Virus record (IMG/VR): IMGVR_UViG_3300009194_000008
Location: 34,859-98,858 of that record
DNA: 64,000 nucleotides
Source of the DNA: a virus
Direction: 5' to 3' (one strand)
The position numbers and the translations under genes were made by a program. The first letter of the stretch is position 1. Each line of letters begins with the position of its first letter. Positions 10,221 to 30,372 of the stretch are shown here, piece after piece. Below the pieces are notes generated by a model. The model saw only the letters and a list, made by a program, of their open reading frames with translations. It was not told the origin of the DNA and ran no database searches.

Positions 10221-10243
10221 GTCGTGTTACTCCTAAATCGATT

Positions 10244-10498: not shown

Positions 10499-10525
10499 TG
10501 TATCTTACCCCTTTTCAATATAATG

Positions 10526-10563: not shown

Positions 10564-10581
10564 GATCATATCCTTTATTTG

Positions 10582-11043: not shown

Positions 11044-11046
11044 CGT

Positions 11047-11925
11047 TTAGAAGTGGATGATAAGGTTCAGCGCATCGTTGCTGGACAGCTGGGTGATGAT
11101 CACGGTGTTCTCATCCAAAATCTGCATGTTGCGCACACCGGTGGGGTACAGGGCGGTGATCGGAGACACTTCGGTCACATAGCCGAACCAGTTAACCGGA
11201 TACTTGCCCTGGTTGTGGGTGATCTTCAGGGAGGTACCATCGTACTCCTTGGCCACAGTCACGCCATCGGGAACCACGAAGTCATCAGCCGCCCAGCTGA
11301 TAACGTCGATACGGATCGGCACGGTGCCAGCAGGACCCTGCGGGCCTTGAGCACCCTGATCGCCTTTATCACCCTTGAGGGAGGCCAGCCAGTCGGTAAC
11401 ACTACCGGTATAGCCTTCGTTGACCGCGACTTCATAGGCCGACATGCCATCGGGACCGACCGGGCCCTGGGGACCTTCTTCGCCTTGAATCCCCTGGATG
11501 CCTTGTTCACCCTGGACACCCTGCTCACCTTGGTCGCCTTTTTCGCCTTGGACACCCTGCTCACCCTGCTCGCCCTTCAGGGAATCCAGCCATTCTTGCA
11601 GAGTACCGGTAAAGCCTTCACCGACAGCGGCCACATAAGCGGACTCACCGGCCGGACCTTCCGGACCCACGAGGGAATCCAGCCATTCCTGGCGGGTACC
11701 ATTGAAGCCTTCGATTTGGGCCAGCTCGTAGGCGGACTTACCTTCAGCGCCTTGCTGACCGATCAGCAGGTCGGTACTGATACGACCATTGATGAACGGG
11801 CCAGAGTCGCCATCACGGTGGATAACTTCGACGAACTTCTGACCGGACAGATCAGGAAGTACCGTCAGTTCCGAGAGCTTTAAACCATTTGCATTCATCG
11901 TTACTTTCCTCTTTCTAAAAGACAA
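11047..11925 (-). CDS. Collagen-like tail fibre protein (likely start ~11898)
   Basis: Gly-X-Y run GEQGEQGVQGEKGDQ...GPQGPVGPDG and three SAY..A...G..G...EWL.SL.G repeats. Confidence 0.85.
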   Translation of the reverse strand: MSFRKRKVTMNANGLKLSELTVLPDLSGQKFVEVIHRDGDSGPFINGRISTDLLIGQQGAEGKSAYELAQIEGFNGTRQEWLDSLVGPEGPAGESAYVAAVGEGFTGTLQEWLDSLKGEQGEQGVQGEKGDQGEQGVQGEQGIQGIQGEEGPQGPVGPDGMSAYEVAVNEGYTGSVTDWLASLKGDKGDQGAQGPQGPAGTVPIRIDVISWAADDFVVPDGVTVAKEYDGTSLKITHNQGKYPVNWFGYVTEVSPITALYPTGVRNMQILDENTVIITQLSSNDALNLIIHF

Positions 11926-11978
11926 TTGGCATTGTTGCCAGTCCTACACACCTTAAAAGACCCTAGCCTTTTAAACGA

Positions 11979-12527
11979 TTAGGCGGATTCCAGCATACGG
12001 AAATGACCATCTTCCATAAGGCGGCCAATACCGGTACCATCTTCCATCAGACGCACATCATCAACCGAATCCAGCGACACCAGGCTGACTTCCACCGTGA
12101 CTTCACCGTACCAGACATAGGACGTCGGCTTGGCCTTCAGGGTAAACTGGAACGGGTTTTGGCGGGAATGGACCTTGATGCGGTCGAAATCCACGTCACG
12201 GGAATTGAGGTTGAACCCCAGCTGACGGTTGATCTCTTCCGCGATCGAACGATGCGTGGGAGTCCGATCGTCGCGATGGGTAATACTCACCACCGGACCC
12301 ATGGCAACTGCCATGTCCAGACGCCGATAATACAGAGACTCTTTACGGCCTCGATCCTGGAGGTACATTTCGATGTAGGTACGACCCGGATCGGTATCGG
12401 TAGGAACCGGGATGGGGTCTTCGAAGGACACATTGTAGTCCATCACCCCCAACCGCGGATGGGTCTCTTGGATGAGATCTACGAGCGCATCCCGACCCCG
12501 CTTTGTGTAACTGTAAATCACTGACAT
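11979..12527 (-). CDS. phiKZ-like virion structural protein
   Basis: YRRLD...IN...G.NL...D...A.P.SYVW.G pattern recalled from jumbo-phage structural families; C-terminal RLMEDG repeats. Confidence 0.55.
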   Translation of the reverse strand: MSVIYSYTKRGRDALVDLIQETHPRLGVMDYNVSFEDPIPVPTDTDPGRTYIEMYLQDRGRKESLYYRRLDMAVAMGPVVSITHRDDRTPTHRSIAEEINRQLGFNLNSRDVDFDRIKVHSRQNPFQFTLKAKPTSYVWYGEVTVEVSLVSLDSVDDVRLMEDGTGIGRLMEDGHFRMLESA

Positions 12528-12591
12528 ACGTGTGACTCCATGAACATTTCTCGGTGTTGGCGGACATCTGACTTAGATAAACGTTCGCTGC

Positions 12592-12604
12592 CATACCATT
12601 GTCA
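12592..12604 (-). promoter_or_regulatory. Putative late promoter TGACAATGGTATG
   Basis: Identical 13-mer also at 30433-30445; both lie ~60-65 nt upstream of structural genes; ends in TATG like phiKZ late promoters. Confidence 0.55.
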
Positions 12605-12622
12605 ATCCCGCCGCGTGTCGCC

Positions 12623-13060
12623 TCAGTAGTTCTCTCGTTTGATAAATCCCTGTTCGATCATGATGATTGCATAGTTGCGCCCATCCGGCAGAATGATGTC
12701 GGCTTCAACGCGGTTGTAAACTGCCCAGCCATATGAACGTACGATAAAACGCTCAGGCAACAGGTCCTGAGCATAGACCGTGGCTTCCTCACCATGGAGC
12801 TTTTCTTCCTCGGTCCCTGGACGCCAGGTTTCCGGTGCGTCGTAGTCACGGATGCGAACCCGGACATCCATCAATACCCCCAACCCCATGCTCAGTCGAA
12901 CATCGAAGGTGTCGGCATCCACGACATTTATCAACTCACCGATGTAATACTGCGTTTCCTCCACATGGTTAAACAGGGGGGTTTCGTCAACATAGGCCTG
13001 CGCGGCGAACGACATCACCCAGCACAGTAGCCCGAGAATAAAACAACGTAACGTTTTCAT
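12623..13060 (-). CDS. Thermonuclease (SNase-like) with signal peptide
   Basis: VVDADTF...RVRIRDYDAPE...YNRVEA; N-terminal MKTLRCFILGLLCWVMSFAAQA signal peptide. Confidence 0.8.
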   Translation of the reverse strand: MKTLRCFILGLLCWVMSFAAQAYVDETPLFNHVEETQYYIGELINVVDADTFDVRLSMGLGVLMDVRVRIRDYDAPETWRPGTEEEKLHGEEATVYAQDLLPERFIVRSYGWAVYNRVEADIILPDGRNYAIIMIEQGFIKRENY

Positions 13061-13115
13061 TTTACCTACCACCTTCAGTTCGTAAACCCTATAACATATC
13101 ATTCCACGGATTGAC

Positions 13116-13160
13116 GGCATAAAGCGGGTGGGGACAACCCCACCCTAGCTTACTTATGTC
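13116..13160. terminator. Conserved hairpin element
   Basis: GGCATAA-GGGTGGGG-acaa-CCCCACCC-TTATGTC. Confidence 0.65.
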
Positions 13161-14011
13161 ACACAGGGCCGACTGAAAGCAGCGAAGTGTGCCAAGAGTT
13201 TTTCACTCACCGCATGCTTGTGGCCGGCGGGCCCGTTGTAGCGTCGACTAAAGGCGGTCCACTCGCGGTTTCGTAACGCCTCGTGGAGTACCGGGTCAGC
13301 TTTTATAAAACGACTAATGGTCAGTAATTGATGACGTTCACCTCGCTTCATTTCCGTTACCAGGTCATGAACCGATGCAAACCCGAGGCGTTGCCAATGA
13401 TACCCCATCAATTGAAACAACCCCCAACCGGTTGATTCCAGAGCTGCTTCTTCATTGATCGCTGCGGCACGTACCAAGTGGTCGTAGCCTGCCTGGTCCA
13501 CATGACCGCCGTCGGGATGGCGACCGATGAGGTCAGGGTACTTACTCAGGTAGTGGGTGGGATCAATCCCTTTGTCTGCCAGCCGCTGGCGCATGATGTG
13601 GCGTTCATAGACCACCGTTGGTCGTTCACTGTCAAGAAACCCAAGTCCTCGCGATTCCACCGCATTGAAAGTCATGACTGTAGCGACGGAAACACCAAGA
13701 ATTACAGCAGCGTTTTCAACATCCGTTTGCGACAACCAGTGTGGATCACGTGGATGGCCAGTTAAACACGCCTGCGTCTTAGGGCCCACACGTCCATCTT
13801 CTACAAGTTGGTGTTTACGTTGAAACGCTTTTACCGTACGCAATAAGGCGTCGTCGAAATGTTCAGTTACGGCAATGGAATGGCCCTGTTCCTGTAGTTG
13901 ACGTTGTATCCGTGTCACGTTATCGCCGCTATCACCGAAAACCGTATGGGGTACCACACAAGGAATAAAGTTGACACTGTTCCACCAGTCAATATCTTGG
14001 TAGCTCGACAT
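13154..14011 (-). CDS. Modular endolysin 1: PG-binding domain + DUF3380-type N-acetylmuramidase
   Basis: V..FQR...L..DG.VGPKT; AVESRG.GF; YERH; WGLFQLMGYHW; RRYNGP. Confidence 0.85.
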   Translation of the reverse strand: MSSYQDIDWWNSVNFIPCVVPHTVFGDSGDNVTRIQRQLQEQGHSIAVTEHFDDALLRTVKAFQRKHQLVEDGRVGPKTQACLTGHPRDPHWLSQTDVENAAVILGVSVATVMTFNAVESRGLGFLDSERPTVVYERHIMRQRLADKGIDPTHYLSKYPDLIGRHPDGGHVDQAGYDHLVRAAAINEEAALESTGWGLFQLMGYHWQRLGFASVHDLVTEMKRGERHQLLTISRFIKADPVLHEALRNREWTAFSRRYNGPAGHKHAVSEKLLAHFAAFSRPCVT

Positions 14012-14076
14012 CTGACCACCTCATCGTGCGCATTATCGCTGTTGTTGGCAGGTTGACCATATGATAGTTTTGTTAC

Positions 14077-14110
14077 GGCATAAAACCCCTTCCCTTTGGT
14101 GGGAAGGGGT
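14077..14110 (-). terminator. Conserved hairpin element
   Basis: GGCATAAA-ACCCCTTCCC-tttggt-GGGAAGGGGT. Confidence 0.7.
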
Positions 14111-14115
14111 GTCTA

Positions 14116-14934
14116 TTACGCGATGCTACCTTGGTCCAGCACCCAGTCGCCACCGGCATCGCTAAAGCCCATGGACTCGAGCAACCAACGAGTGGCTTGC
14201 GGGGTCATGTTGGCGGTCTCCACCGCCGCGGCTTCGGCTTCGGCTTGGGTAGCGTTGCCTTGGTTCTCCACGCTATCCAGACCCACGTCGGCTTTCACCA
14301 GGGTCACTGCACCGGATTTACCCGCAACGGTGGTGACAGACTCGGAGAAGCTGATCACACCGGTGCCACCGTCGTAGGACAGATCACCGCTGACACTGAT
14401 GGCGTTACGAGCACGGGTATCAGTGAAGTAGAGGTTGGTAGAGCCTTCGGCCAGCCCATCGGTGGTGGCCGGACCTGCGTTGGCCTCGGTCATGTTGATG
14501 TAGGCACTGCCGGACCAACGGTAGATGTCGTTGGTGTCCAGGGCGATGTAGATGACGCTGGTCTCACCAGTGGCGGGGAAGGACGCCTCATCGGCAAACT
14601 CCAGCACATCATCCACGTAGGCGGGCAGCTGGGAAGACGGGATCTTGCCGGAGCTGTTCAGGGTGGCGATACCATCGGCCACACCCACCTGGTCCACGGC
14701 AACCTTGGCTGCCAGGGCGGTTTCCAGACCACTTACTCCGGAGATACCCAGTTCGTCCAGCTGTTGCTGAATGGCCTGGATGTCACCCGGGACCGGCACC
14801 AGGAAGCCACCTTGAGTTGCCCCGTCATGAATGCGAAGCTGGTTGAGTTCGGTATCCAGGGAGAGGGAACCCGCTGCCCCGGTGAAACCATCATTCTGAA
14901 CCGTTGTGCCGCGCCGAAACTGAATCTTTAACAT
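14116..14934 (-). CDS. Mtd-N-like tail fibre/adaptor protein
   Basis: IQFRRGTT...LRIHDGATQGG; QLPAYVDDV; EGSTNLYFT; KADVGLDSVEN. Confidence 0.8.
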   Translation of the reverse strand: MLKIQFRRGTTVQNDGFTGAAGSLSLDTELNQLRIHDGATQGGFLVPVPGDIQAIQQQLDELGISGVSGLETALAAKVAVDQVGVADGIATLNSSGKIPSSQLPAYVDDVLEFADEASFPATGETSVIYIALDTNDIYRWSGSAYINMTEANAGPATTDGLAEGSTNLYFTDTRARNAISVSGDLSYDGGTGVISFSESVTTVAGKSGAVTLVKADVGLDSVENQGNATQAEAEAAAVETANMTPQATRWLLESMGFSDAGGDWVLDQGSIA

Positions 14935-19658: not shown

Positions 19659-20546
19659 TTACAGGAAGGTCGCGTTGTTGACGTCCTGCTCACCCAGCAT
19701 CGGTTCAACCCCACCCACGTCCAGCGTGAAGGTTGCCCCGTTGGTGGCGTACCCGATCGCATGATAGGTCGCGACATGCACATTCACCTGACAGGCAATG
19801 CACTCTTGGTAGGTGAACGTCCCGGCACCACCCGAACTGCCCTGGACTTCCTTGTCGACACCGGAACACAGGGCGATCTCGGAGATCACTGGTGAGCGAA
19901 CGGACCCTGTACGGATTTTGTGGGCATTGAGGATTTCGGCGATATCATCCGGACCCAACTCAACGGTCATCACCGCTGAAGCGGACTCAGAACTACTGGA
20001 ACCGAGGACGATACCAGTGTTTGAGATAGCGGGGCGTTCCGGGTTGAGGTTATCGGTAGTCGGGGTAAAAGGCGTGGTGGTTGCCACCCCATCAGTCACC
20101 TCTACACGCTGTAGCTGCGCTACCACATCGTCCATGGTAATACGACGCAGATAGTAGGCCACATAGTTCACCCCATCGTGGGTTTCCAGCACCCGTAAGG
20201 CGTAACGGTCACGAACATGCGCCGGGAGATCATTGGTGACTTCACGTAACACAAAGGGGATCTGTCCATAGAGACCCGCATCAGTAGCGCGATGCGGGAC
20301 CGGTACGGTTTCATCACTACCATCGTCAGCCTTGACGGTAGCGTGGCCCAGGTTACCGATCGCGAAGTAGCGCATGGCTGGGGTCTGTGTCGCAGGCGGA
20401 GTAACACCGGCCTGAACATCGAAACGTTCATTGAGAGTGGTGTTCTCAATCAATTCAAACGGGATGCCCAGGTTTTTGATCGTTTGCAAATACGTCCCGT
20501 AAACAGTCCGCGTGACGCCAATGATTTCTTGGTCCATAGAGGCCAT
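19659..20546 (-). CDS. phiKZ-like conserved virion/baseplate protein
   Basis: NTTLNE...YFAIGNLGH...H...DA.LY..IPFVLR....DL...R..Y.LR...YY pattern recalled from phiKZ-like structural proteins. Confidence 0.6.
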   Translation of the reverse strand: MASMDQEIIGVTRTVYGTYLQTIKNLGIPFELIENTTLNERFDVQAGVTPPATQTPAMRYFAIGNLGHATVKADDGSDETVPVPHRATDAGLYGQIPFVLREVTNDLPAHVRDRYALRVLETHDGVNYVAYYLRRITMDDVVAQLQRVEVTDGVATTTPFTPTTDNLNPERPAISNTGIVLGSSSSESASAVMTVELGPDDIAEILNAHKIRTGSVRSPVISEIALCSGVDKEVQGSSGGAGTFTYQECIACQVNVHVATYHAIGYATNGATFTLDVGGVEPMLGEQDVNNATFL

Positions 20547-20616: not shown

Positions 20617-21102
20617 TCAACGTAACCTAAGGTTGATCCCATCAAAATGGAAGCGGTCTTCTACTGTTTCGTTCCACAACAACTCCACAGGATGACTGTA
20701 CGAGTCTTCGATTGACCGTAGTTCACGAATCAACACCCCCCACTGTTTTTGAAAATATCGAACGGAGGAGAACGAATCTCCACGGTCGATGTAGCGAATA
20801 AGATAATCATCCAGTAGGGATGGGTGTGGATACACTCGGTAATGAAAAATTTCCTGATTGATGAGTTGTTGAATGATGGGCATCTCAGTCGCAGCGAAGA
20901 TAATCCTTGCGGTTGATAGATGACACTTTAACATTCTAATGTAGTTTACCGGAAAAGTCGGATCACCGCGGTATCCATTTGTATCGAGGTCTATCACCGT
21001 ATCATCCGGTATGGATTTCGTGTGATATAGTTGGTTTTGTATTGACCGGAACATCCGGGACTTTCCCACGCCCGGAAAACCACAGACGACATGTGGTTGC
21101 AT
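20617..21102 (-). CDS. Small P-loop NTPase/kinase-like protein
   Basis: Walker A GFPGVGKS; FP.NYI...VYP...Y..R...RG. Confidence 0.65.
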   Translation of the reverse strand: MQPHVVCGFPGVGKSRMFRSIQNQLYHTKSIPDDTVIDLDTNGYRGDPTFPVNYIRMLKCHLSTARIIFAATEMPIIQQLINQEIFHYRVYPHPSLLDDYLIRYIDRGDSFSSVRYFQKQWGVLIRELRSIEDSYSHPVELLWNETVEDRFHFDGINLRLR

Positions 21103-21107
21103 GAGGG

Positions 21108-21659
21108 TTACCCGAATGTGAAGTCAGTGGTTAATGCTACCCGAAACTCCCCTGGGTGGGGGAGTACATAGTGAGGGATGTAACACGGAAAGATCACCAT
21201 CATACCCGTTGTCGGGGAAATGTGGTGATTCGCGAAATATCCACGTCGAACCGGTGTGGGGTATGATCGACATGCCGCACCACGGGGATCCATCAGGGTG
21301 AGGTCCCCTGGCGCCGCCGCAAGATACAACACCGTGGTCAACAGTGAATGACCGTGGATATGGGGTTCAATCCCGGCGTTGTTATGTCCATGAACCGCCC
21401 AACTGTGATAGGACATTGTTGATTCGTCAATTGGGTAATCCCAGCAGTCTTTTGTGTACTGTAAGACGGCTGGTACGATTACCTCGCGCCGCAAGCGCCA
21501 CAAGTAGGGCGTGTGTTCCTCACTAATGATCTCTTGCTCGTCCGCACCCCACTGGGCCATTTGCGGACTACTAAAGATTTCAGTAATGGCGCGTTCTTCG
21601 TCGATGTCCTTTATAACCTGTTGTCCAATCTGTGTGCGCCACGGTTCATGGTATTCCAT
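21108..21659 (-). CDS. 2OG-Fe(II) oxygenase-like protein (HxH...H type)
   Basis: SW...PHIH...LTTVLYL...L.L.DPR...G.MVIFP.YIPH.V...R. Confidence 0.8.
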   Translation of the reverse strand: MEYHEPWRTQIGQQVIKDIDEERAITEIFSSPQMAQWGADEQEIISEEHTPYLWRLRREVIVPAVLQYTKDCWDYPIDESTMSYHSWAVHGHNNAGIEPHIHGHSLLTTVLYLAAAPGDLTLMDPRGAACRSYPTPVRRGYFANHHISPTTGMMVIFPCYIPHYVLPHPGEFRVALTTDFTFG

Positions 21660-22759
21660 TACGCCTCCCGGCTAGTGGCAATTAAACCACTCTCATTAAC
21701 GTAGGGGGTAGGTTCCAGCTGACCTGTCATCCCATTAGCTTCGATAATGTCTGGTGCTAGACGTTTCATTTTCTGACAATGGTGTTCGACCAGACCCAAG
21801 GCCTTATGGTCGTGGGTTGTCTTTTTGCAGGAATTACAAATCGAAAACATGGGACACCCATAACAGCTATACTTCATCACGCTGATTTCGGGGTCGTTCT
21901 GTAGTGGTGTGGTCAACTCTCCGGTCATTTCACTATTAAAGTCAATCGCGTATTTTTTATCGTCAGCAAATGCTGGACAGCTATAGTAGTCGCCGGATGG
22001 TTGTAGCGTACGTATCCCTGCATCACACTGTCGCGACAATGGGCAAGTAGTGAGTTCCCCTCTCAACTTACGTACCATCTGCTTTGTATTATATTCCCAC
22101 TCCGTGAGGCCGGCTTTCCATATATCAACGTAGTGTCCATACATGTCAGCAAGTAGGTAAAGGGATCCCTCATTGCCCATTTGTCGGCCTTTGATCTCTA
22201 CCGATGGCCCCGATGACATTGCGTAGTTGGCTTTACATTCAACTTCCATCTCACGGGCCAGACGGACGTGATCCAAAACCCGGTCGGCATTGTCTTCATC
22301 GATAACCGAAATGAAGTCTGGCCGGTAACCACAGATATCCAACATGCAATCGGAGACTTTCCAGAACTCTTCTTCGGTAAAGGGGGTAAAATCCCCCTTC
22401 AGTCGCTTATCGCCGTACTGGAAACTGGTAATTACCGAGAACTTTGGGTGTTGAAAAACCGCCCGCCAACGCTCGGGTTTCTTGTAGAACGGCCACAGGT
22501 TACTGGTGATACTTACAATAACATCAAGGTTCTCATCATCGAGGTAGTCCAGCAGTTCTTGGTAATAGTCAGGGGTCATCATCAGCGGATCGCCACCGTT
22601 GACAATAATTGTCTCTGTCTCCGGGAACCTAACCAGGAAGGCTTTGATTTGATCCAATGACAACTCATCCCCTGCATCATCGGCAATCGACGTACTGGAA
22701 CAGAAGGTGCATTTGAAATTACACCGTTCTGTTGGTTTAATTACGAGATCCACACCCAC
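21659..22759 (-). CDS. Radical SAM/SPASM-domain enzyme B
   Basis: CNFKCTFC (CxxxCxxC), GGDP, SPASM-type Cys: CPLSRQC...SC...CYGC...CNSC...HC. Confidence 0.92.
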   Translation of the reverse strand: MGVDLVIKPTERCNFKCTFCSSTSIADDAGDELSLDQIKAFLVRFPETETIIVNGGDPLMMTPDYYQELLDYLDDENLDVIVSITSNLWPFYKKPERWRAVFQHPKFSVITSFQYGDKRLKGDFTPFTEEEFWKVSDCMLDICGYRPDFISVIDEDNADRVLDHVRLAREMEVECKANYAMSSGPSVEIKGRQMGNEGSLYLLADMYGHYVDIWKAGLTEWEYNTKQMVRKLRGELTTCPLSRQCDAGIRTLQPSGDYYSCPAFADDKKYAIDFNSEMTGELTTPLQNDPEISVMKYSCYGCPMFSICNSCKKTTHDHKALGLVEHHCQKMKRLAPDIIEANGMTGQLEPTPYVNESGLIATSREA

Positions 22760-22762
22760 TCC

Positions 22763-23830
22763 TTAGTCGGCCCACCCGACTTTAACTGGATTGCCTGACG
22801 CACGGTTGGCCAGTGCCCAGAAAACCAGATTCGTGGTAAACATGCGCGATTCCATGGGAGGAACAATGAGCGTCAACCGATCCAACTGCGTATAAGCGTC
22901 AATATACCCGTCCACTATTTCGTCGTCGGGGAGTTCGAGAAGTTCAATCGGCACAGTCATTTCACGCACATTTGTCTCGAGGTACGTGTTGGTGTTGATG
23001 GTGTTAAGGAGTTTGCGGAGATCGTGTTGATATCCTTCCTTAAACGCCACGATTTTCTCAGAAGATGAAAATACATCTTCAAGGTCAACCTCACGCGACA
23101 CTACCTTGAGTCCTTCGATATCACGCAGTGGGGAATTCATAGTCAGTGTAGCGGTGGGGAGCTCCCCTAGCATCTTTTTAATATGTGGCGAGAAATACAG
23201 ATACCCCAACTTACTCCGTTGTGTTTCTATTTGATCATTAATTGCCCGATAAAGGCGATGACGTAGTCGTGTGGGTAAGGTAGTATCCTCTTCACCTGCC
23301 ATATGGCCGAGCAGGCGGTATTCCACCGGGAGGTGTTCGTGGTGGTTGTTCAAAAACTCAAATACTACATCGGAGCGCGACATTTCTGTCATGCACCGTT
23401 TGATAAAGTTAGGTGTTGTCGTTTCACTACCCCAAATGAACGTTGATTCAGAGCGTTCACGGTTAAGGAACAGTAAGAACGCAAGTTCACACAGCGCGCT
23501 ATGGGAAAGCTTTGGGAACAGGTGACGAACCCAGAAACAGAAAAGCTTGACATAGGCCTCGTCGTCACAGAAGATAACCACGGGCCTGTCGCGGTCACAT
23601 AACAGTTCTAACTCATCAGGAAAAACACTCGTAATAAAGTCATCGACGTCCTTGGTATAATAACAGGTCTGTGCGAGTTCTGGAATACCTAACGACTTCG
23701 ACAGTCGATCATCTTCGGATTCTAGAAAATGATCCTCAATACCACTACCAATGATGTATCGTTGGGTGTTACTGTTGAGGTGGTCAATATGGTCAACATA
23801 AACGTCGTCAAATAACAGGTACATTCTCAA
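22763..23830 (-). CDS. Hypothetical protein in radical SAM cassette
   Basis: 355-aa ORF, tightly packed and overlapping with neighbours; no recognised motif. Confidence 0.75.
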   Translation of the reverse strand: MRMYLLFDDVYVDHIDHLNSNTQRYIIGSGIEDHFLESEDDRLSKSLGIPELAQTCYYTKDVDDFITSVFPDELELLCDRDRPVVIFCDDEAYVKLFCFWVRHLFPKLSHSALCELAFLLFLNRERSESTFIWGSETTTPNFIKRCMTEMSRSDVVFEFLNNHHEHLPVEYRLLGHMAGEEDTTLPTRLRHRLYRAINDQIETQRSKLGYLYFSPHIKKMLGELPTATLTMNSPLRDIEGLKVVSREVDLEDVFSSSEKIVAFKEGYQHDLRKLLNTINTNTYLETNVREMTVPIELLELPDDEIVDGYIDAYTQLDRLTLIVPPMESRMFTTNLVFWALANRASGNPVKVGWAD

Positions 23831-24539
23831 CTCCTAATTCACTAACCGCTTTATTGAACCGAGCGATAAACTCTTTCTCATCAAACTCGCCCTGCTGTAT
23901 CCCGATGCCGATCAGGAATACCGGATTTTCAGCATTACACCAAAAAAGTTCCAGTGTACTTCCCCGGTAAAGGGGTTTATCGTAAAGATCCTGATAGTAA
24001 CACAACGGAATAATGGGGGTGCCATCCAGGAGTAATGGGAACAGATCGTGGCCGATTAGTTTAATATAGTTAATTCCCGTTAGATCCCGATCGGTTACTA
24101 CCTCGTGTTGTTTGAAAATATAGTCCTCATTGACCCCGGTCCATTTCATGTTGTAGAGACTGAGTGACTCGATAATACTCAGCCAACGGTAAATAATGTC
24201 ACGGTTTTGAGGGTCGATGATAAGATCGTGGTAGTCGATCCCCGACTCACTGGCAAACCCTTTAATTTGTAGTAATACTTCTAGGACGCCACGTTCCAGC
24301 TGAGGTAGGTCATGCACCATAGGAGAGCGCATATACGCCAGCAACAGAGAAAAATAATCATCGGTTGATGTAAAATCTAACGTTACTTCCATTCCGAGGT
24401 TGGTCAAATACGTCAAAAATACTTGCCCTTCAAGTTTCGACTCCGCTACGTCGATAACCACCTCAGGCGTGGGCTTCTCAGCCACCAGTCTTTTGATAAC
24501 ATCGGTGGGGACTGGAACTACCGTATTAATTGCTTGCAT
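23808..24539 (-). CDS. Hypothetical protein in radical SAM cassette
   Basis: 243-aa ORF with GAGGA RBS, directly downstream of the CHxS protein. Confidence 0.75.
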   Translation of the reverse strand: MQAINTVVPVPTDVIKRLVAEKPTPEVVIDVAESKLEGQVFLTYLTNLGMEVTLDFTSTDDYFSLLLAYMRSPMVHDLPQLERGVLEVLLQIKGFASESGIDYHDLIIDPQNRDIIYRWLSIIESLSLYNMKWTGVNEDYIFKQHEVVTDRDLTGINYIKLIGHDLFPLLLDGTPIIPLCYYQDLYDKPLYRGSTLELFWCNAENPVFLIGIGIQQGEFDEKEFIARFNKAVSELGVENVPVI

Positions 24540-24564
24540 CTAGGTTGTCCTCTATACTTAGTTT

Positions 24565-25137
24565 TTACACACCACCACCGTTACCTGGACCGTCGCCATG
24601 ACAGCTAGAGTGGCAACTATAATGGCAGCTAGAATGACAGAATGTTTCGCTGATGGATACCGTTGAATTCCGTACATTGACCACCTTATTCTTTACCGCC
24701 GTCATGTACGATCTCAGATCGCCATAATCGACCGGATTTCCAGCGGCCGTGCCACTGCCTCCAGGATCACTAATACCTGTCCTATAACCACTATGTAGAT
24801 GACCAATGCGGGTCTCATTAGCAAATACATAATACCTGGAGTTATTGTTGTACCGCATATACACTGAAACACGGCGGATTGCTGTGTACAGCGCGGCATG
24901 TGCGACAATACGACTGCGCATGGTAGACGAGTCAATATTACCGGAGAAGTCACTGGTACTTGGACTATTGTAAAGTCCATTTTTCGACCCAGTGAAGTAC
25001 GACTCGTATGTACTCCGGGCATAGCCGTTGTAATCAGGTGGGTAATTGCCACTTCCCCAACTAATTCCCGAATTCAGAGGATTTCGAATGTAGGCGTTAA
25101 ACAGGTTAACGACGTGCTGTGATGTAACATCGGTCAT
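24565..25137 (-). CDS. Putative radical SAM substrate with C-terminal (CHxS)3-CHG core
   Basis: C-terminus ...ETF-CHSS-CHYS-CHSS-CHG-DGPGNGGGV; lies between two rSAM/SPASM genes. Confidence 0.75.
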   Translation of the reverse strand: MTDVTSQHVVNLFNAYIRNPLNSGISWGSGNYPPDYNGYARSTYESYFTGSKNGLYNSPSTSDFSGNIDSSTMRSRIVAHAALYTAIRRVSVYMRYNNNSRYYVFANETRIGHLHSGYRTGISDPGGSGTAAGNPVDYGDLRSYMTAVKNKVVNVRNSTVSISETFCHSSCHYSCHSSCHGDGPGNGGGV

Positions 25138-25143
25138 GTTTCA

Positions 25144-26184
25144 TTATCCTTCAATCATCGTAAGTGGGATGAGGTTGTCGCCGCCTCTCTGGATGTAACG
25201 CAAAAGATTTTTCAAACCACCGCACCGGTCACCCTGCCAGGGAAGTTGATGACAATCACCGCCACATAGATGAAACACATCACACTGTAAACAGTTGGGG
25301 TGAAAATTCAACTCGTGGGTGATTTCAGCAAGTCGCCCATCGCTGGTAAGAAAGGTTTCAACACTGTCGTCAATCGTGGCATGTTTATTACTTGCTGCGG
25401 TGTTGGGACATCCAGCGAGTGACCCATCGGCGTTCATTGTTACTAGATTCTGTTCGCAGTTACGGCAGTTGGTGTCTGTCTTAACCACCTGTGTATCAAG
25501 CTTCTCCTCAATTATATCTAAGGTGCCGATTGAGAAATTCCAATGGTACTGTGGATCCTTGTATAATTTATAGACCTCGACAAACCAATTATCTTGAGCT
25601 TCGTTATCCGGAAAGATCGCCGGGTTGCGCACGGCGTTACCATCCAGCGTCAGGCGTTCCAGTTTGATGTTCTCCGGCGCTACCTGTTGCATCTCATTAA
25701 GGAACTCCATTATCTCCATATTCACCAGTTCGGTGTTGACCGAAACAAAAACACACCGTGGAATCCCTTCGTTCTTCAAGATGGCAACATTCTTTTCCCA
25801 TAGCGCCTTTTGGTTATGGGTTTCAAAACGAATCCCTACATCCCAGCTGGTACCGACAAACCCAATGCGGCGTAAGAGCGCCAGTTTCCGATCATCCAAC
25901 TTCAACACGAGGTTCGTCGTAATTGTAATTGCAACATTTGGTTGTTTTTCATAATAGGCAACGAATCGTTCCAAATCCTCTATGGGGGCAAGAAGTGGCT
26001 CACCTCCATGTAGGATCAGCATCACCTGTTCCCCTTCTGGGTAGTGGGCGATAAATTGATCAATCCAGGCAATGGTGGCGTCTGCATCCCACTTGACTTT
26101 ACTCCCGTTGCGTCCGTTAGTAAAGCAGTGGTCACAATGCAGGTTACAAGTATCGGACGTCTTAACATAAATTGCCTTACTCAT
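25144..26184 (-). CDS. Radical SAM/SPASM-domain enzyme A
   Basis: CNLHCDHC, HGGEP, TTNL; SPASM CRNC...GCP...CLQC...CGGDC...C. Confidence 0.92.
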   Translation of the reverse strand: MSKAIYVKTSDTCNLHCDHCFTNGRNGSKVKWDADATIAWIDQFIAHYPEGEQVMLILHGGEPLLAPIEDLERFVAYYEKQPNVAITITTNLVLKLDDRKLALLRRIGFVGTSWDVGIRFETHNQKALWEKNVAILKNEGIPRCVFVSVNTELVNMEIMEFLNEMQQVAPENIKLERLTLDGNAVRNPAIFPDNEAQDNWFVEVYKLYKDPQYHWNFSIGTLDIIEEKLDTQVVKTDTNCRNCEQNLVTMNADGSLAGCPNTAASNKHATIDDSVETFLTSDGRLAEITHELNFHPNCLQCDVFHLCGGDCHQLPWQGDRCGGLKNLLRYIQRGGDNLIPLTMIEG

Positions 26185-26190
26185 ACATCC

Positions 26191-26976
26191 TCACGTCAGC
26201 GGAGGGAGTTTAGTGTCGTCGATCAGATGTTCTCTGAACCACTTGATCACTACGTACTTGGTGTGGGTGACTACAGGTGTAGACAGGTGGTGGGCCTTAT
26301 TGTCGGCTGTCGCAAGGGGGTAGTTAAAAAACAACAACGACCCTTTTTTTGGGTAAACGCAAATACCCAAGTGATCAAAGCAGGTACCGCCATCACCATG
26401 TGTGTCATTTAAATACATGACCATGGTACCGACCCGTTGTCCTCCATTATCAAGTGCCCGAGAACGGTTTTTTCCTTCGCCAAAGAAATCATGGTGTCCA
26501 CGGATACCTTCGTCGTAGTCGTACCGAACAAAACTACTACGTTCCGTTTTAAACCGTGGCCATAATGTAATCGCCTCAAGGCGTTCTTCAAACCTCTTCA
26601 TAATCGGACATGAACTACGTTTTAGAGCTTTCCCATATGCAGTGCGACGCTCGTCAATAACCTCATTACCTTCATGGTCTAAAAGAAAACCCATGCGTTT
26701 GAGACCGGTGTTGTATTTTTCGATGAGGGTATCGCATTCAACATCGGTTAGAAAATGATCGATAACTCTAACATGCGGGTCATCAATGGAGAGACGTACA
26801 CAACAGTCATCTGGAAGTAGGTGACGTGCACTGTTTAGGGAGTGCTCACTGATGGTTGGTGCCACACGGTACGGGGGTATCGGGTATGACATTAATAGGT
26901 ACTCTGGGTGGAGTGATGGTATTTCTATAATATTCCCTAACGGGGTATTCCTCCACCAACCCGGATAGACCCACAT
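26191..26976 (-). CDS. Prolyl-4-hydroxylase-like 2OG-Fe(II) oxygenase
   Basis: FLT..ECD.LI, RT, RY...HHDFF, R..T..MYLND...GG.T.F, P.KG..LFF, H...PV...K....KW. Confidence 0.88.
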   Translation of the reverse strand: MWVYPGWWRNTPLGNIIEIPSLHPEYLLMSYPIPPYRVAPTISEHSLNSARHLLPDDCCVRLSIDDPHVRVIDHFLTDVECDTLIEKYNTGLKRMGFLLDHEGNEVIDERRTAYGKALKRSSCPIMKRFEERLEAITLWPRFKTERSSFVRYDYDEGIRGHHDFFGEGKNRSRALDNGGQRVGTMVMYLNDTHGDGGTCFDHLGICVYPKKGSLLFFNYPLATADNKAHHLSTPVVTHTKYVVIKWFREHLIDDTKLPPLT

Positions 26977-27012: not shown

Positions 27013-28299
27013 TTATTGCCACTGTGGCGGCCACACGGTTCGCCATGAACCACTAACCCGTGCCTGGAGCTGTCCATTGTAAACTCTCAGGCTGGTTTCG
27101 TCGCTGGAGTTTTTGATCACGTAACGACTATCGTGTTCATTACCCGCAATGTGGTCATTCAGTGCCTGACGAACACGCTGCGGTGTCATGAAACGGTTGC
27201 CGGCGGTACCATTCACAGCATCACTGTAAGAGGCAGTCGGGTAGTTGTCTACATTACCTAACCCCACCTGAGCTTTCGTAACGTTGTGTGGGTTGTTGGT
27301 GTTAGTGGTATGTTGCTCCAACTGCCGTCCCGCTTGGAAATCAATGGCTTGCGCGGTGCGCAGTGGGGTCATATACCGATCGTTACGATCCCCAACTTCA
27401 GCCTCGCCCTGGGATGAAAGAGTAAAATCCTCCACCCGACCAAGACCCACTTGAGTTTTCGTGACGTTATGGGGGTTGTTATAATCATCACGGTGACTAC
27501 GAAAGTCCCGACCTAGATGAAAATCAACCCCGTGGACCAAACCCTCTACGGTTATAAAGCGGTTATTCGCGGTTCCTGTTTCAACTTCCAGTAACGTTGC
27601 GGTAGGGTAGTTATTCACTGAACCCAAACCCACCTGGGCTTTCGTGACGTTATGGGGGTTCGTTGAGTTGGCTTTGTGGTCCTGGAACCGACCATCGAGA
27701 GCATCGGTATAGTCCTTCCCAACGTCGAGCAGTTCCCGGGCGTACGCCCGTACTTCGTCATGAATTGACTGATCACCCACCACAATCGCTTGGACAACGC
27801 GTTCTAACTGGATGACCAGATACTCAAATCCATACAACTCCCATAGCGCATGTAGATGCCCTCCTGGGGGGTATTCCGATGGCTTACCAATGATCTCGGC
27901 CCATTCAACTGGTCGATCATCATCTTTCAGGGTTTGAAGTACCTGCTCCAGCGCGGCTGTTGAAATTGCAAAGTCACCACCCACCGCCTGGTAGTCGACG
28001 GTGACTTCTGAGGTAACATTGGGGTCAATAACAACCAATGTACCACAAACTTCCAGACCGCTGCGGGTAGTAGCATCCTCGTATAGGTAGGTGGCAATGT
28101 AATGGACATCGGGTTTTAACCGAAGGCCCGAAGAATCCCTAAGGACCAAGGACTCGGTATAAAACGCGCCATTGTTAGGAACAAATACACGCATGCCATC
28201 ACGTGAGTTTTCCACCAGGGTATGGCGTTCCCCAATGACCAGATTGTCTGGATTTCGTCCAGTCAGGTCCAACGGATACTTACGAATTAACGGGGTCAT
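27013..28299 (-). CDS. Tail fibre protein with NPH.VTK.QVGLG repeats
   Basis: YPLDLTG..PDNLV..E.H N-terminus (phiKZ-like); three NPHNVTKAQVGLG.V.NY-type repeats; C-terminal WRTVWP. Confidence 0.8.
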   Translation of the reverse strand: MTPLIRKYPLDLTGRNPDNLVIGERHTLVENSRDGMRVFVPNNGAFYTESLVLRDSSGLRLKPDVHYIATYLYEDATTRSGLEVCGTLVVIDPNVTSEVTVDYQAVGGDFAISTAALEQVLQTLKDDDRPVEWAEIIGKPSEYPPGGHLHALWELYGFEYLVIQLERVVQAIVVGDQSIHDEVRAYARELLDVGKDYTDALDGRFQDHKANSTNPHNVTKAQVGLGSVNNYPTATLLEVETGTANNRFITVEGLVHGVDFHLGRDFRSHRDDYNNPHNVTKTQVGLGRVEDFTLSSQGEAEVGDRNDRYMTPLRTAQAIDFQAGRQLEQHTTNTNNPHNVTKAQVGLGNVDNYPTASYSDAVNGTAGNRFMTPQRVRQALNDHIAGNEHDSRYVIKNSSDETSLRVYNGQLQARVSGSWRTVWPPQWQ

Positions 28300-28317
28300 C
28301 GATTACTCCACTTATCA

Positions 28318-30372
28318 TTAGGCCAGTAGTGCTGTTGTTGCATCACCAAATACGGTATCCAGTTCCGATACGACATCGGTCATTTGTTGGTCAATATCGG
28401 AAAACTCGGCATCATACAGTCCAGTCACCGTAACCATAGTTGGTGAGTCCAATGTGTCGGCGGAGACAATCGCTGTAGGGTCTTCGAGCTCAGTATTGTA
28501 CAACTCGGCGATCGGAATGAGGTTAATGTTCTCAATCACACCTGCGGGTTGTATCCAAAGTTCCTGGCCGTTTTCCACATTCATGGTGGTGGCAATATTC
28601 AAATCAAACTCACCGCCATTTAGAATCGTGGCACTTGCAGGAGTTCCTGGCTCACCCATATGGATTTGAAGAATAGCATCTCGACCATTAACGTGTCGAC
28701 CGGTTAACAAGAACGACGCATTACCGGATTCGATTACCGAGTTGTCGTCTGCAAGTTGTTGCGGGCGAGTCAGTAGACGGATATACTGCGTCCCAGTTGC
28801 GTTATTGACATCAAATGAGAGGAAACGGACGAAATTGTCAGTCAATGGTCCGACAATAAGGTCAGGTACTGTTAAGCCACCCACCCTATCACTGTCAAAC
28901 GCAGTTCCAGTAAGGATGTCGGCCGCTAAATCGGGTTTAAGCAAACCAAACACACGACTTGCGTCATAAGCGACACCGTCTGTGGGCAGAAGTCCAGTGG
29001 TTATGGAGTCGATCTCCGCAATGGTGTATGCCCCTACCTGTTCCGCCGATACCTGGTGTGGGTTTTCAAAATCGTTAACATGACTTTCCAGAACCGTCCC
29101 AGTTACCGCTGCGATGGCCTCTTTTGTTGTCATCGGGGTCATGTAAAGGTCATCGCGCTCACCGGCAATTGCTTCGGAGTTGGTCGCGATAGAAAAGTTC
29201 TGTACGTTACCCAACCCGATTTGGAATTTATCCACATCGTGAGGGTTGTTAATGTCAGCAGCGTGCTGACCTAACGGAATGAGTGCTAAAACATCAATCG
29301 CCTCTGCTGTGCGCAGTGGGGTCATATACCGATCATTACGATCCCCGGCGAACGCTTCGCTTTGAACAGCGATGGGGTAGTTTTCTACTTCACCAAGGCC
29401 AATAACTTCTTTGGTCACTCCAGTGGGGTTAGTGGGATCACCACTCAAAACAGGGGCAAGACGGTCGATATAAAACTGATCAAGCGCCTGACCTACCCCA
29501 CGCGGTGACATATACCGAGTCGTCAATGACGCTTCGCGGGCTTCAACATCATCAGCGAAAAGATAGTTTTCAATGTTCCCCAGTCCCACCTGAAACTTAG
29601 TTACGGCGTGGGGATTGCTGGTGTCGGCGAGGTGCGTATTGAGTGGTTGAACCGCGTGCTCGTCTACCGTTGCCCGAACGTTGCTCGGCGACATATAGCG
29701 GTCACTACGTAACCCCGCCCGCGCTTCAGCTTCATCGGCGAAGATGTAGTTATTTACATTATCCAAACCCACTTGGGCTTTTGTGACGTTGTGTGGGTTG
29801 AGTCGATCATCCATATGTTGAGAGAAACGCCCTGACTCACTCTCAGAAATCGCGTCAACAACGTTACCAATCGAATCAACAATGTCTTGGAACCCAATAA
29901 GGTCATCCACCCGCTGTTCATGTGGGATTGGGGGGAACATCTCAGGGATAGTGTCAATCTGAGCCCAACCACGAGTTAACGGGTTAACCACTTTATTAGA
30001 GAGTTCTTCAAGAATCGCTTGATCATCGAACCCCCACTGTCCCCCAACTGTCTGGTATGTTAAGGAAACCACTCCCCCGATGTCGCGGTTCAGGAACCGA
30101 ATCGATCCAGCAATCGAACGTCCAGTTTGGGTCATTGCCTCCACAAACCAGTGGCCAACCACATAATCACGTCCTTCAACGTAAACCTCACCGGTGGTGT
30201 CGTTACGCACCACCATGGACTTAACAAAGAACGGGGCCGCTTTCGGAATCAGAAAATAGAAATCATCACGACCGGGCGTCTGTAGTGCCTGTAGTTCATT
30301 AAGCACCAAACACTCGGGATTGTTGCCGTACGGGTCAAAGGGGTAAAGACCGGTGGTGCTATGAGTAGCCAT
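28318..30372 (-). CDS. Tail fibre protein with NPH.VTK.QVGLG repeats
   Basis: YPFDPYG..P N-terminus paralogous to 27013-28299; five ~60-aa NP...V...Q.G repeats, the last degenerate. Confidence 0.8.
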   Translation of the reverse strand: MATHSTTGLYPFDPYGNNPECLVLNELQALQTPGRDDFYFLIPKAAPFFVKSMVVRNDTTGEVYVEGRDYVVGHWFVEAMTQTGRSIAGSIRFLNRDIGGVVSLTYQTVGGQWGFDDQAILEELSNKVVNPLTRGWAQIDTIPEMFPPIPHEQRVDDLIGFQDIVDSIGNVVDAISESESGRFSQHMDDRLNPHNVTKAQVGLDNVNNYIFADEAEARAGLRSDRYMSPSNVRATVDEHAVQPLNTHLADTSNPHAVTKFQVGLGNIENYLFADDVEAREASLTTRYMSPRGVGQALDQFYIDRLAPVLSGDPTNPTGVTKEVIGLGEVENYPIAVQSEAFAGDRNDRYMTPLRTAEAIDVLALIPLGQHAADINNPHDVDKFQIGLGNVQNFSIATNSEAIAGERDDLYMTPMTTKEAIAAVTGTVLESHVNDFENPHQVSAEQVGAYTIAEIDSITTGLLPTDGVAYDASRVFGLLKPDLAADILTGTAFDSDRVGGLTVPDLIVGPLTDNFVRFLSFDVNNATGTQYIRLLTRPQQLADDNSVIESGNASFLLTGRHVNGRDAILQIHMGEPGTPASATILNGGEFDLNIATTMNVENGQELWIQPAGVIENINLIPIAELYNTELEDPTAIVSADTLDSPTMVTVTGLYDAEFSDIDQQMTDVVSELDTVFGDATTALLA

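Follow-up and report, generated by a model that had tools for sequence, protein, structure and literature searches.

In this study, a putative conserved protein-modification cassette was recognised in a viral DNA stretch of 64,000 nucleotides (the window), and two-way gene linkage suggests that it is built around a protein with a C-terminal Cys-His tail, in line with the original prediction. We consider it rather probable that the tail of this putative particle protein is modified by phage radical SAM (rSAM) enzymes and oxygenases before assembly. The evidence consists of the linked genes, an invariant tail on a folded protein body, an orthologue detected in a phage preparation, and self-cleaving domains that follow the tail in some orthologues; from these we infer the tail modification itself, the role of each enzyme and the purpose of the modification. 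No paper describing such a phage cassette was found in the literature; the "host recognition cluster" of pelagimyophages has been reported to contain rSAM cassettes.

Gene cassette and its linkage across phage genomes

The eight ORFs predicted at 20617-26976 were all present at their coordinates as a tightly packed, co-oriented block on the minus strand, with intergenic spacing of -23 to +25 nt. The GC content over 20-27 kb was 0.45-0.50, compared with about 0.52-0.58 over the greater part of the window, so the block is indeed richer in AT, and the families assigned to its enzymes (rSAM/SPASM and 2OG oxygenases) were upheld by Pfam, NCBIfam and PHROG matches. The features are listed below in gene order, preceded by the two genes upstream.

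27013-30372, minus strand: two tail-fibre/virion structural genes, 428 and 684 aa (phrog_2163, E 1e-126; phrog_13857, E 9e-180)
26191-26976, minus strand: P4H-type 2OG/Fe(II) oxygenase, 261 aa (PF13640, solved P4Hs)
25144-26184, minus strand: rSAM/SPASM A, 346 aa (PF04055, TIGR04085, phrog_1802)
24565-25137, minus strand: Cys-His-tailed protein, 190 aa (tail motif, AF2 model, family of 789 representatives)
24568-24639, minus strand: C-terminal tail, (C-H-x-S)x3-C-H then GDGPGNGGGV (invariant Cys-His dyads, period 4)
23808-24539, minus strand: unknown protein, 243 aa, phrog_20767 (constant neighbour downstream of the tail gene)
22763-23830, minus strand: unknown protein, 355 aa, ATG at 23824 (positional conservation, 69 loci by clustering)
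21659-22759, minus strand: rSAM/SPASM B, 366 aa (PF04055, phrog_1802, clade B)
21108-21659, minus strand: 2OG-Fe(II) oxygenase of the PF13759 type, 183 aa (PF13759, phrog_81)
20617-21102, minus strand: P-loop protein, 161 aa, phrog_4182 (visible GxxGxGKS motif, weak AAA matches)

This gene order is not due to chance, because the same order was found in hundreds of viral contigs. When loci were found via the tail motif, a homologue of rSAM A was present in 79 of 82, the 243-aa protein in 78 (almost always next to the tail gene) and rSAM B in 68. When loci were fetched through rSAM A alone, a (CHxx)n-CH ORF lay within 1.5 kb downstream in 72 of 75, so the expected co-occurrence of rSAM homologues and tail ORF holds both ways. 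The original prediction had implied a trait peculiar to a jumbo phage, but the cassette is widespread and was found in T4-like uncultured phages, phiKZ-like phages, Atu_ph07-like phages and contigs binned to Bdellovibrio. Its description as a complete pathway is not established either: the window holds a minimal variant with two rSAMs, whereas relatives hold four to seven and carry many tailoring enzymes. In the phiKZ-like, T4-like and Atu_ph07-like phages, the cassette always lies behind fibre or baseplate genes. The same fibre-gene pair stands ahead of it in DT01, RSL2 and phiKZ-like contigs, and the 428-aa and 684-aa genes directly upstream in the window represent this conserved genomic setting.

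The Cys-His-tailed protein and its probable association with the particle

In the AF2 model (pLDDT 86.5, pTM 0.79), the 190-aa protein consists of a folded body (residues 1-166) and a flexible C-terminal tail (pLDDT below 50), and the disorder of the tail in the model indicates that it is accessible. The body is modelled as a globular alpha/beta domain that is not fibre-like (no beta-helical fibre). It had no match among solved structures (Foldseek E > 0.5; VIA Z at most 3.6), and the protein had no NCBIfam or Pfam match at E <= 0.1; we regard the carrier as a predicted new fold. The tail reads CHSSCHYSCHSSCHGDGPGNGGGV, with the pattern CHSS-CHYS-CHSS-CH. The family counts 789 representatives, and in a 61-sequence alignment C167, H168, S170, C171, H172, S174, C175 and H176 are invariant. 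A CHxS repeat had been described earlier; the Cys-His repeat tail is real, but its conserved unit is C-H-x-x and the invariant core of the family is C-H-x-x-C-H-x-x-C-H, since the tail Ser, although common in the family, can be replaced by Asn, Ala, Asp or Gln. This alignment indicates that selection acts on the tail, whose core is invariant although the bodies are only ~25% identical. Among the best 150 representatives, 132 end with CHx[SN]CHx[SN]CHx[SNA]RxRR. The window tail ends with GDGPG where the usual ending is RGRR, and the GD[GS]PG ending is common to P0004, P0005, P0009 and P0133.

Atu_ph07 gp170, which is an orthologue of the 190-aa protein and ends FCHSSCHASCHNSRSRR, was identified in a phage preparation purified with PEG (8 unique peptides, 35% coverage), whereas its enzyme neighbours gp165-169, gp171 and gp172 were absent from the preparation proteome (PMC6102473 Table S5). 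Because this preparation was PEG-purified and also held RecA-like, SSB and RNR peptides (PMC6102473), the detection is good evidence, but not proof, of a structural role. The mass of gp170 is 31.9 kDa, yet it peaks in the top gel band 1 with proteins of 87-127 kDa (PMC6102473 Table S5), and this signal could be disulfide-linked or merely SDS-resistant, because the loading buffer lists no reducing agent. In the L003 orthologue, a Peptidase_S74 fibre chaperone comes right after the Cys-His tail (PF13884, E 1.5e-11, 44.8 bits, cut-off 22), and Hint domains follow the tail in other relatives. The S74 fusion is limited to one lineage, and the window protein has no PF13884 and ends 10 residues past the last Cys-His. 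The position of the self-cleaving domains after the tail suggests that the tail becomes exposed as the mature C-terminus and that the protein carrying it assembles in the manner of a fibre, and the detection of a relative in a purified phage preparation suggests that the enzymes probably modify a particle protein. We believed that the 190-aa protein is probably both a particle protein and the substrate of the enzymes.

Alternatively, the tail might stay unmodified and bind metal or iron-sulfur so as to stabilise an oligomeric tip of the fibre, with the rSAMs and oxygenases acting on another substrate, such as a different fibre protein or a small molecule. HxH iron sites and iron-binding His repeats occur in T4 fibres, and the three or four Cys-His dyads at fixed spacing, together with the S74 trimerisation chaperone directly after the tail in L003, are compatible with such a tip. 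A disulfide-linked or metal-held oligomer could also explain the band 1 signal of gp170 in a gel with no listed reductant. However, this explanation does not account for one rSAM paralogue accompanying the tail gene so tightly (72 of 75 loci that were fetched independently), nor for the oxygenase type switching with the tail ending; the tail is disordered in the AF2 model, and the cassette offers no other conserved repeat-bearing candidate substrate. We therefore think that it is unlikely.

A classical RiPP or cofactor pathway was also considered, in which the 166-residue body would be a long leader and the tail, once modified, would be cleaved from it to yield a free small peptide or a redox or metal-binding cofactor. 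In the PQQ and mycofactocin pathways, a C-terminal core is found beside SPASM enzymes; the tail likewise looks like a modified core at the extreme C-terminus beside such enzymes, and numerous tailoring enzymes are present in relatives. This reading is very unlikely in our opinion, because the body is a conserved domain that is predicted to fold confidently, gp170 was present in the phage preparation with 35% coverage, the cassette sits within structural gene blocks and the self-cleaving domains stand after the tail instead of before it. Domain searches of all eight proteins (Pfam, NCBIfam, PHROG) also found no RRE, peptidase or transporter domain, so the cassette was rejected as a classical RiPP system and the earlier remark that it holds no exporter or leader peptidase was confirmed. 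With no protease or exporter in the cassette and gp170 in the phage preparation, a modified full-length protein, as first proposed, is favoured over a secreted peptide.

Radical SAM enzymes and comparison with known systems

Both rSAMs scored above the PF04055 cut-off of 29.5 bits (rSAM A, 36.4 bits; rSAM B, 40.3 bits) and matched phrog_1802 (E 7e-53 and 2e-50, respectively). For the TIGR04085 SPASM model (cut-off 27 bits), rSAM A reached 29.0 bits, and rSAM B, with a Cys-rich C-terminus, fell slightly under the cut-off at 23.4 bits. rSAM A carries CxxxCxxC (C13, C17, C20) and eight C-terminal Cys, including CX2CX5CX3C, invariant in 34 orthologues. In the paralogue tree, rSAM A belongs to clade A (support 99), the paralogue that is always directly upstream of the tail gene. 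rSAM B belongs to clade B (support 99), is 61% identical to its counterpart from a T4-like contig and is the second universal paralogue of the cassette. The phage enzymes are minimal, with the rSAM core starting at about residue 8. Both resemble, along their length, SPASM enzymes that modify peptides or proteins, namely anSME, YhhB, FxsB, PapB and DynA in NCBIfam and anSME and CteB in the PDB, but their chemistry is not readable from homology because they score far under the cut-off of each characterised rSAM family.

It has been shown that the HXS system, which comprises the effector HxsA, the rSAMs HxsB and HxsC, and HxsD, is a defence that blocks phage DNA entry and places a +8 Da modification of unsolved chemistry on an SHRSS repeat (Li et al., Nat Commun 2026; PMC13128918). 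The phage cassette is similar in that two rSAMs and one or more helpers would mature a full-length protein with short His-x-Ser-type repeats and basic residues. In contrast to HXS, its repeat is a C-terminal Cys-His dyad with period 4, its carrier is a predicted new-fold protein with an orthologue in a phage preparation instead of a periplasmic peptidoglycan-binding effector, and it lies in a fibre module and includes oxygenases. rSAM B matched HxsC (TIGR03977) with 29.3 bits over the N-terminal 80 residues only (cut-off 267.9), and HxsB (TIGR03978) was not among the matches listed for either rSAM. CXXX-repeat membership (TIGR04114/TIGR04115) was rejected as well on the basis of the 190-aa protein, which had no NCBIfam match; the maturase model was not among the 25 best matches listed for either rSAM. 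By HMM comparison, the cassette is a member of neither system, which agrees with the original wording that it resembles but does not match them. We also weighed a phage copy of HXS-like logic, namely an rSAM-matured effector for superinfection exclusion or a decoy against the bacterial HXS defence. Two rSAMs and a protein that carries His-x-Ser units and ends in basic residues, as in HXS, would suit it; but HxsC reached only 29 bits against 268, HxsB was not among the listed matches, the HxsA and HxsD models had no match, no peptidoglycan-binding domain or signal peptide was present, the tail Ser is not invariant, and the protein is encoded in a structural module with an orthologue in a particle preparation. 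We regard this explanation as highly improbable.

The comparison with the anaerobic sulfatase maturase (anSME) family (TIGR03942) that had been suggested gave 59.5 bits for rSAM A and 30.9 bits for rSAM B against a cut-off of 349.45, so neither is a member; no sulfatase gene is present, and the window tail has no Arg. There are likenesses: anSME is a minimal rSAM/SPASM enzyme of ~350-370 aa with no RRE that modifies the Cys of a folded protein, it aligns weakly with rSAM A over the full length (59.5 bits), it is among the top PDB matches (4K36-4K39), and the last unit of the common RxRR tails, C-H-x-S-R, resembles C-x-P/A-x-R; the target of anSME in sulfatases is C/S-x-P/A-x-R. However, the window tail has no Arg past the last Cys, and the phage system combines multiple Cys-His units with multiple rSAM paralogues.

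In Methanococcus voltae, the SPASM rSAM CrpC installs ranthionine thioethers on the Cys-rich protein CrpA (PMC13692751). Like CrpC/CrpA and QhpD/QhpC, the phage cassette places a SPASM-type rSAM beside a putative Cys-rich substrate that is a whole protein and not a short peptide, and by analogy these pairs may offer the closest mechanistic model of how thioethers could form. In contrast to the minimal phage enzymes, CrpC carries an RRE and N-terminal domains, and the substrate motif, organism and biological role differ. The triceptide synthases HaaB, HtkB and YhhB are SPASM rSAMs that join His C2 to the beta-carbon two residues on (PMC11499958). The phage H-x-S units fit this three-residue spacing, and among the NCBIfam models YhhB ties for the best match to rSAM A. 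Unlike the short leader-core peptides of triceptides, the phage units sit in a 190-aa folded protein, their third position is not invariant, and triceptide logic does not explain the invariant Cys. Triceptide membership was rejected, with 59.5 bits for YhhB (NF041707), 54.6 for FxsB (TIGR04269) and under 24 for XyeB (TIGR04496) against cut-offs of 445, 370 and 450, respectively. The 190-aa protein also recalls fibres and tailspikes in which S74 acts as an intramolecular chaperone at the C-terminus, such as endosialidase and T5 pb1, because the L003 relative has S74 directly after the Cys-His tail, the arrangement of self-cleaving trimeric fibres, and the gene lies among fibre genes; the window protein, however, stops before the S74 position, and its body is globular alpha/beta with no beta-helical fibre.

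Oxygenases, helper proteins and proposed mechanism

The 261-aa oxygenase scored 39.6 bits for PF13640 (cut-off 27) and matched the solved P4Hs 5iax, 3itq, 2jig and 7zsc (B. anthracis, Chlamydomonas, human) at E 1.8e-19 to 7e-14. It occupies the place of a ~165-aa cupin in most relatives, and among the loci compared, only L003, the closest relative, has a P4H homologue at that position. For RxRR tails, the upstream gene was a cupin in 172 cases and a P4H in 0, whereas both genomes with GDxPG tails (window and L003) encode a P4H. The oxygenase type thus appears to covary with the tail ending, though window and L003 represent one evolutionary event only. X-Pro-Gly is the classical P4H target. The 183-aa oxygenase scored 42.9 bits for PF13759 (cut-off 27) and matched phrog_81 (E 4e-19); clustering placed its homologues in 44 loci, where they frequently follow rSAM B.

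The 243-aa protein, whose Atu_ph07 orthologue is gp169, gave a confident AF2 model (pLDDT 89.7, pTM 0.85) with no fold match (best Z 4.2), and is probably a non-structural helper. The 355-aa protein belongs to a fast-evolving family, found in 69 loci by clustering, that keeps its position in the cassette; it had no match in Pfam, NCBIfam, PHROG or the PDB, and hhalign showed no relationship to the rSAMs.

In the mechanism that we propose, the 190-aa protein would be a component of the virus particle at the fibre or baseplate, and its flexible Cys-His tail would be the enzyme substrate. rSAM/SPASM A and B would modify the tail inside the infected cell and ahead of assembly, and the most likely result is covalent bonds made by radical chemistry at Cys, His or both; candidate products include thioethers, cross-links through Cys or His side chains, and oxidised Cys. 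Tailoring steps would fall to the Fe(II) oxygenases, and for the P4H-type enzyme of this lineage the Pro in the GDGPG ending is the probable site of hydroxylation. Non-structural helper roles, for example in substrate presentation or folding, may belong to the 243-aa and 355-aa proteins, and the modified protein would then be built into the particle with its tail at or near the mature C-terminus. As a more doubtful speculation, large phages might have rSAMs dedicated to welding the Cys-His tail of a fibre or baseplate protein, so that tails are joined covalently to each other or to a partner protein, or turn into a tip that is reactive or chelates metal; particle assembly or host recognition would in that case hang on radical chemistry inside the infected cell, with the oxygenase type (cupin or P4H) matched to the sequence after the tail.

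The 161-aa P-loop protein shows a visible GxxGxGKS motif and weak AAA matches (E 0.016), and a homologue was found only in L003. Its gene had been counted as part of the cassette and does adjoin it in the same orientation, but gene comparison indicates that it is a lineage-specific passenger outside the conserved core.

The eight-gene cassette and its neighbours

All eight minus-strand open reading frames expected at 20617-26976 were found, with intergenic gaps of -23 to +25 nt, and the block was indeed richer in AT than its surroundings, its GC content falling to 0.45-0.50. The first gene had been taken for a P4H-like oxygenase and the 183-aa protein for a 2OG oxygenase; the former matched PF13640 (39.6 bits) and solved P4Hs (E 1.8e-19), and the latter matched PF13759. 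The 346-aa and 366-aa proteins (rSAM A and rSAM B) are radical SAM enzymes as proposed, with PF04055 above the cut-off, and both belong to phrog_1802, a phage family (E 7e-53 and 2e-50, respectively). Two assignments of the original prediction stood in part: a SPASM domain was recovered in rSAM A (29.0 bits, cut-off 27), whereas rSAM B reached 23.4 bits, below the cut-off; and the 161-aa protein called a P-loop protein shows a Walker A motif, but all its AAA matches were weak. The 190-aa protein (24565-25137, minus strand; the tail protein, after its Cys-His tail) and the 243-aa and 355-aa proteins had no curated family match. PADLOC returned generic viperin and 2OG matches only, and a sigma-70 promoter scan gave hits at shuffle level; such a scan carries no information on a phage that has polymerases of its own.

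The features flanking the cassette are as follows.

27013-30372, minus strand: two tail-fibre or virion structural genes, upstream of the cassette (phrog_2163 and phrog_13857, E down to 9e-180)
19659-20546, minus strand: conserved 295-aa unknown (phrog_3315, E 2e-103), next after the cassette in the window and in L003, the closest relative of the window

The two fibre genes have a common N-terminal module and several copies of the short motif NPHNVTKAQVGLG, and matched many PHROG tail-fibre families. Downstream of the cassette, the conserved unknown is accompanied by a RuvC-like resolvase, a spanin and an endolysin. An ORF of the same size (295 aa) lies just ahead of the rSAM set of Ralstonia phage RP31. 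The source record is a 98.9-kb IMG/VR viral fragment with an estimated completeness of 34%, which puts the whole genome at roughly 290 kb and makes this a jumbo phage; besides A and B, no rSAM genes are present on the fragment.

Conservation and linkage of the cassette

When the whole cassette or the 190-aa protein was compared with the phage collection (DNA megablast, protein tblastn), no match was obtained, and relatives came to light only when rSAM A or the 243-aa protein served as query or patterns were scanned for. With rSAM A and the 243-aa protein as queries, the same neighbourhoods appeared in Pseudomonas phage pPa_SNUABM_DT01 (DT01), Ralstonia/Burkholderia phages of the RSL2/RSF1 group, Agrobacterium phage Atu_ph07 and Sinorhizobium phage Phosso. 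In DT01, RSL2 and Atu_ph07, the gene after rSAM A encodes a small protein with the same Cys-His repeat at its end.

The expectation that the rSAMs co-occur with a Cys-His-tailed ORF in other phages was borne out in both directions. A tail-motif scan of IMG/VR gave 93 contigs, and the 80 loci kept from it, together with those of DT01 and RSL2, made up 82 loci, in which rSAM A, the 243-aa protein and rSAM B were present in 79, 78 and 68, respectively; the fast-evolving 355-aa family was placed in 69 by clustering. In the reverse direction, an rSAM A alignment scan gave 398 contigs, and among the best 75 loci with enough downstream sequence, 72 had a (CHxx)n-CH ORF within 1.5 kb downstream of rSAM A. 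The reverse test weighs more, because the 82 forward loci were picked by the motif itself. Two actinobacterial matches (L084, L085) were rejected as out-of-frame chance matches in high-GC DNA.

Hundreds of large phages of ocean, lake and soil origin carry the cassette, which spans 4-20 kb; among cultured phages it is present in those that infect Pseudomonas, Ralstonia, Burkholderia, Agrobacterium and Sinorhizobium. Its place is always the host-recognition region. The typical order in T4-like contigs is a VrlC-like giant structural protein, a 77-aa virion protein, a fibre-like protein, a cupin, rSAM A and the tail protein, followed by the 243-aa and 355-aa proteins, more rSAMs and oxygenases, rSAM B and one further rSAM. 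The rSAM paralogues fell into distinct clades, with the window's enzymes in clades A and B (support 99 each); the clade A enzyme is always upstream of the tail gene, and rSAM B of the window is 61% identical to that of a T4-like contig. Since the cupin and every extra rSAM and oxygenase family of the relatives are missing from the window, its cassette is a minimal version.

Several other arrangements were observed. Two tandem Cys-His-tailed genes (124-138 aa) at L081:7453-8213 and L082:8007-8836 are followed by rSAMs of another clade (c14), without the usual rSAM A, possibly as a second type of architecture. Contigs L083 (CAZCHT010000097.1) and L086 (DDVI01000089.1) hold, at about 5800-14900, a cassette with seven rSAM genes and the tail end CH..CH..CHGARGRR; they are binned to Bdellovibrio or Bdellovibrionaceae MAGs and could be either bacterial chromosome or phage DNA. 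RP12/RP31, relatives of RSL2, carry a 537-aa rSAM, an "arylsulfatase regulator" and MoaA-like and MgoB-like proteins behind two fibre genes (PMC5468394, Suppl. Table 2). As this different rSAM set occupies the same position, RP12/RP31 proteomics was rejected as evidence on the present family. The slot behind the fibre genes seems to be a hotspot for cassettes of radical SAM genes.

The tail protein and its probable association with the particle

A profile search of 1.84 billion representatives gave 789 members of the tail-protein family at E <= 0.001. C-H-x-S-C-H-x-S-C-H was invariant in a 61-sequence alignment whose bodies are only about 25% identical, and 132 of the top 150 representatives end in CHx[SN]CHx[SN]CHx[SNA]RxRR. 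The repeat had been described as CHxS. The Cys-His dyad at period 4 is conserved, but in the wider rSAM-A-based set the fourth position is also Asn, Asp, Gln or Ala, which makes the dyad, and not His-x-Ser, the conserved unit. Such a tail might simply bind metal and stay unmodified, which we consider unlikely beside its linkage to the rSAMs. The unit number varies: L034:8001-8681 has several blocks separated by NVV, and L227:705-1289 and L229:1864-2448 have six units ending in GSRGWR, so the repeat is able to expand. In an AlphaFold2 model built on this 61-sequence alignment, the body was globular, of alpha/beta type and predicted with confidence (pLDDT 86.5, pTM 0.79), and the tail was disordered. 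No solved structure matched this fold convincingly (Foldseek against PDB, E > 0.5; VIA-align, best Z 3.6), and a BFVD search found only its own family, uncharacterised relatives that include the Atu_ph07 protein.

In the Atu_ph07 proteome, gp170 was identified by 8 unique peptides with 35% coverage (PMC6102473), and its mass of 31.89 kDa is consistent with the 296-aa Atu_ph07 orthologue of the tail protein, which ends in FCHSSCHASCHNSRSRR. It was present in gel slices 1-9 with its peak in slice 1, which otherwise holds proteins of 87-127 kDa, whereas 30-kDa proteins peak in slice 8 (PMC6102473). No reductant is listed in the loading buffer, so this high-mass form may be disulfide-linked. The neighbours gp176 and gp177 were detected too, whereas the cupin, the rSAMs and the 243-aa homologue (gp165-169, gp171, gp172) were undetected; the preparation was PEG-purified and held a few replication proteins as well (PMC6102473).

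The domains found behind the tail in relatives also bear on its fate. The L003 tail protein, 54% identical to that of the window, has a Peptidase_S74 intramolecular chaperone after the tail (E 1.5e-11). In tail fibres and spikes, Peptidase_S74 serves as the trimerisation module and cleaves itself. In other relatives, a four-unit Cys-His tail is followed at once by one to three tandem Hint (Hedgehog/intein-like) domains (P0011, a 650-aa family representative from a JGI metagenome; L209:2112-3863; L218:140-2143), each with Cys-Phe at its start and His-Asn at its end, which suggests self-cleavage, or possibly ligation, at the C-terminus of the tail. The window's tail protein stops exactly where the S74 or Hint domains would begin. 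Judged from these sequences, the tail would lie at or near the mature C-terminus in all three forms. The tail protein thus behaves as a particle protein and not as a peptide precursor, and a reading in which the cassette makes a released, PQQ-like product is quite improbable.

Proposed modification and its significance

The known substrates of radical SAM/SPASM enzymes are peptides and a handful of proteins, namely sulfatases, QhpC, CrpA and HxsA. In the best-supported reading, rSAM A and rSAM B would act, before assembly, on a particle protein associated with the fibre or baseplate, at its exposed Cys-His tail; the oxygenases would be responsible for tailoring, and the 243-aa and 355-aa proteins would be non-structural helpers. 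The best rSAM family matches were anSME, YhhB, FxsB, PapB and DynA, which scored 42-60 bits where the cut-offs are 340-450, and the solved-structure matches include anSME and CteB; at this level of similarity, homology does not reveal the reaction. By analogy with CrpC/CrpA, QhpD and His-cyclophane synthases, thioether or other Cys/His side-chain cross-links would be the most likely chemistry. Formylglycine formation is possible at the C-H-x-S-R unit of the common tails and is not possible at the window's own tail.

The first oxygenase varies with the tail ending. A small subfamily (the window, L003 and the representatives P0004, P0005 and P0133) has four Cys-His units and, in place of RxRR, the end GD[GS]PG-Gly-rich. 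Among all loci compared, RxRR tails had the cupin upstream in 172 cases and the P4H-type enzyme in 0, whereas GDxPG tails had the P4H-type enzyme at this position in both genomes with visible context; the covariation represents one evolutionary event only. X-Pro-Gly is the classical P4H target, and this covariation is of the kind expected if the first oxygenase acts on residues behind the last Cys-His. The cupin has an invariant HxD...H and Lys and weak profile matches to cupin_2 proteins and JmjC hydroxylases, so the enzyme at this position is always of the Fe(II) kind.

Among described systems, the antiphage system HXS (PMC13128918) comes nearest in logic; it is a bacterial defence built on a repeat-bearing protein that is matured by two rSAMs together with a helper. 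None of the HXS membership features tested was found in the cassette, and an HXS-like exclusion effector is less probable still than a released product. In the searched literature, we found neither a phage structural protein reported to be matured by a radical SAM/SPASM enzyme nor a description of the tail protein or of how it is linked to the cassette enzymes. The DT01 paper, like the reports of the pelagimyophage host-recognition cluster and of a T4-like marine genome with 12 rSAM genes, goes no further than to call such genes "radical SAM proteins" of unknown role. Should the tail prove to be modified, this would be a new step in virion assembly, probably with new Cys/His chemistry, and would account for the rSAM genes, as many as a dozen per phage, that marine T4-like phages carry and that have been classed as "auxiliary metabolic genes". 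The cultured phages Atu_ph07, DT01 and RSL2 open the idea to direct testing, and the window's two-rSAM version is the simplest set for reconstitution. New from the window are this minimal form, the pairing of a P4H-type enzyme with the GDGPG variant of the tail, and the S74-fused sister gene.

As for the putative helpers, PDB profile searches with the 243-aa and 355-aa proteins were empty, the ESM Atlas held nothing usable for either, and their origin as decayed rSAM paralogues was rejected by hhalign (probability 0.1). The 243-aa protein (23808-24539, minus strand) had no convincing match among solved structures (best Z 4.2). Its AlphaFold2 model and that of the tail protein were confident (pLDDT 86-90), and on these models both proteins are candidates for new folds.
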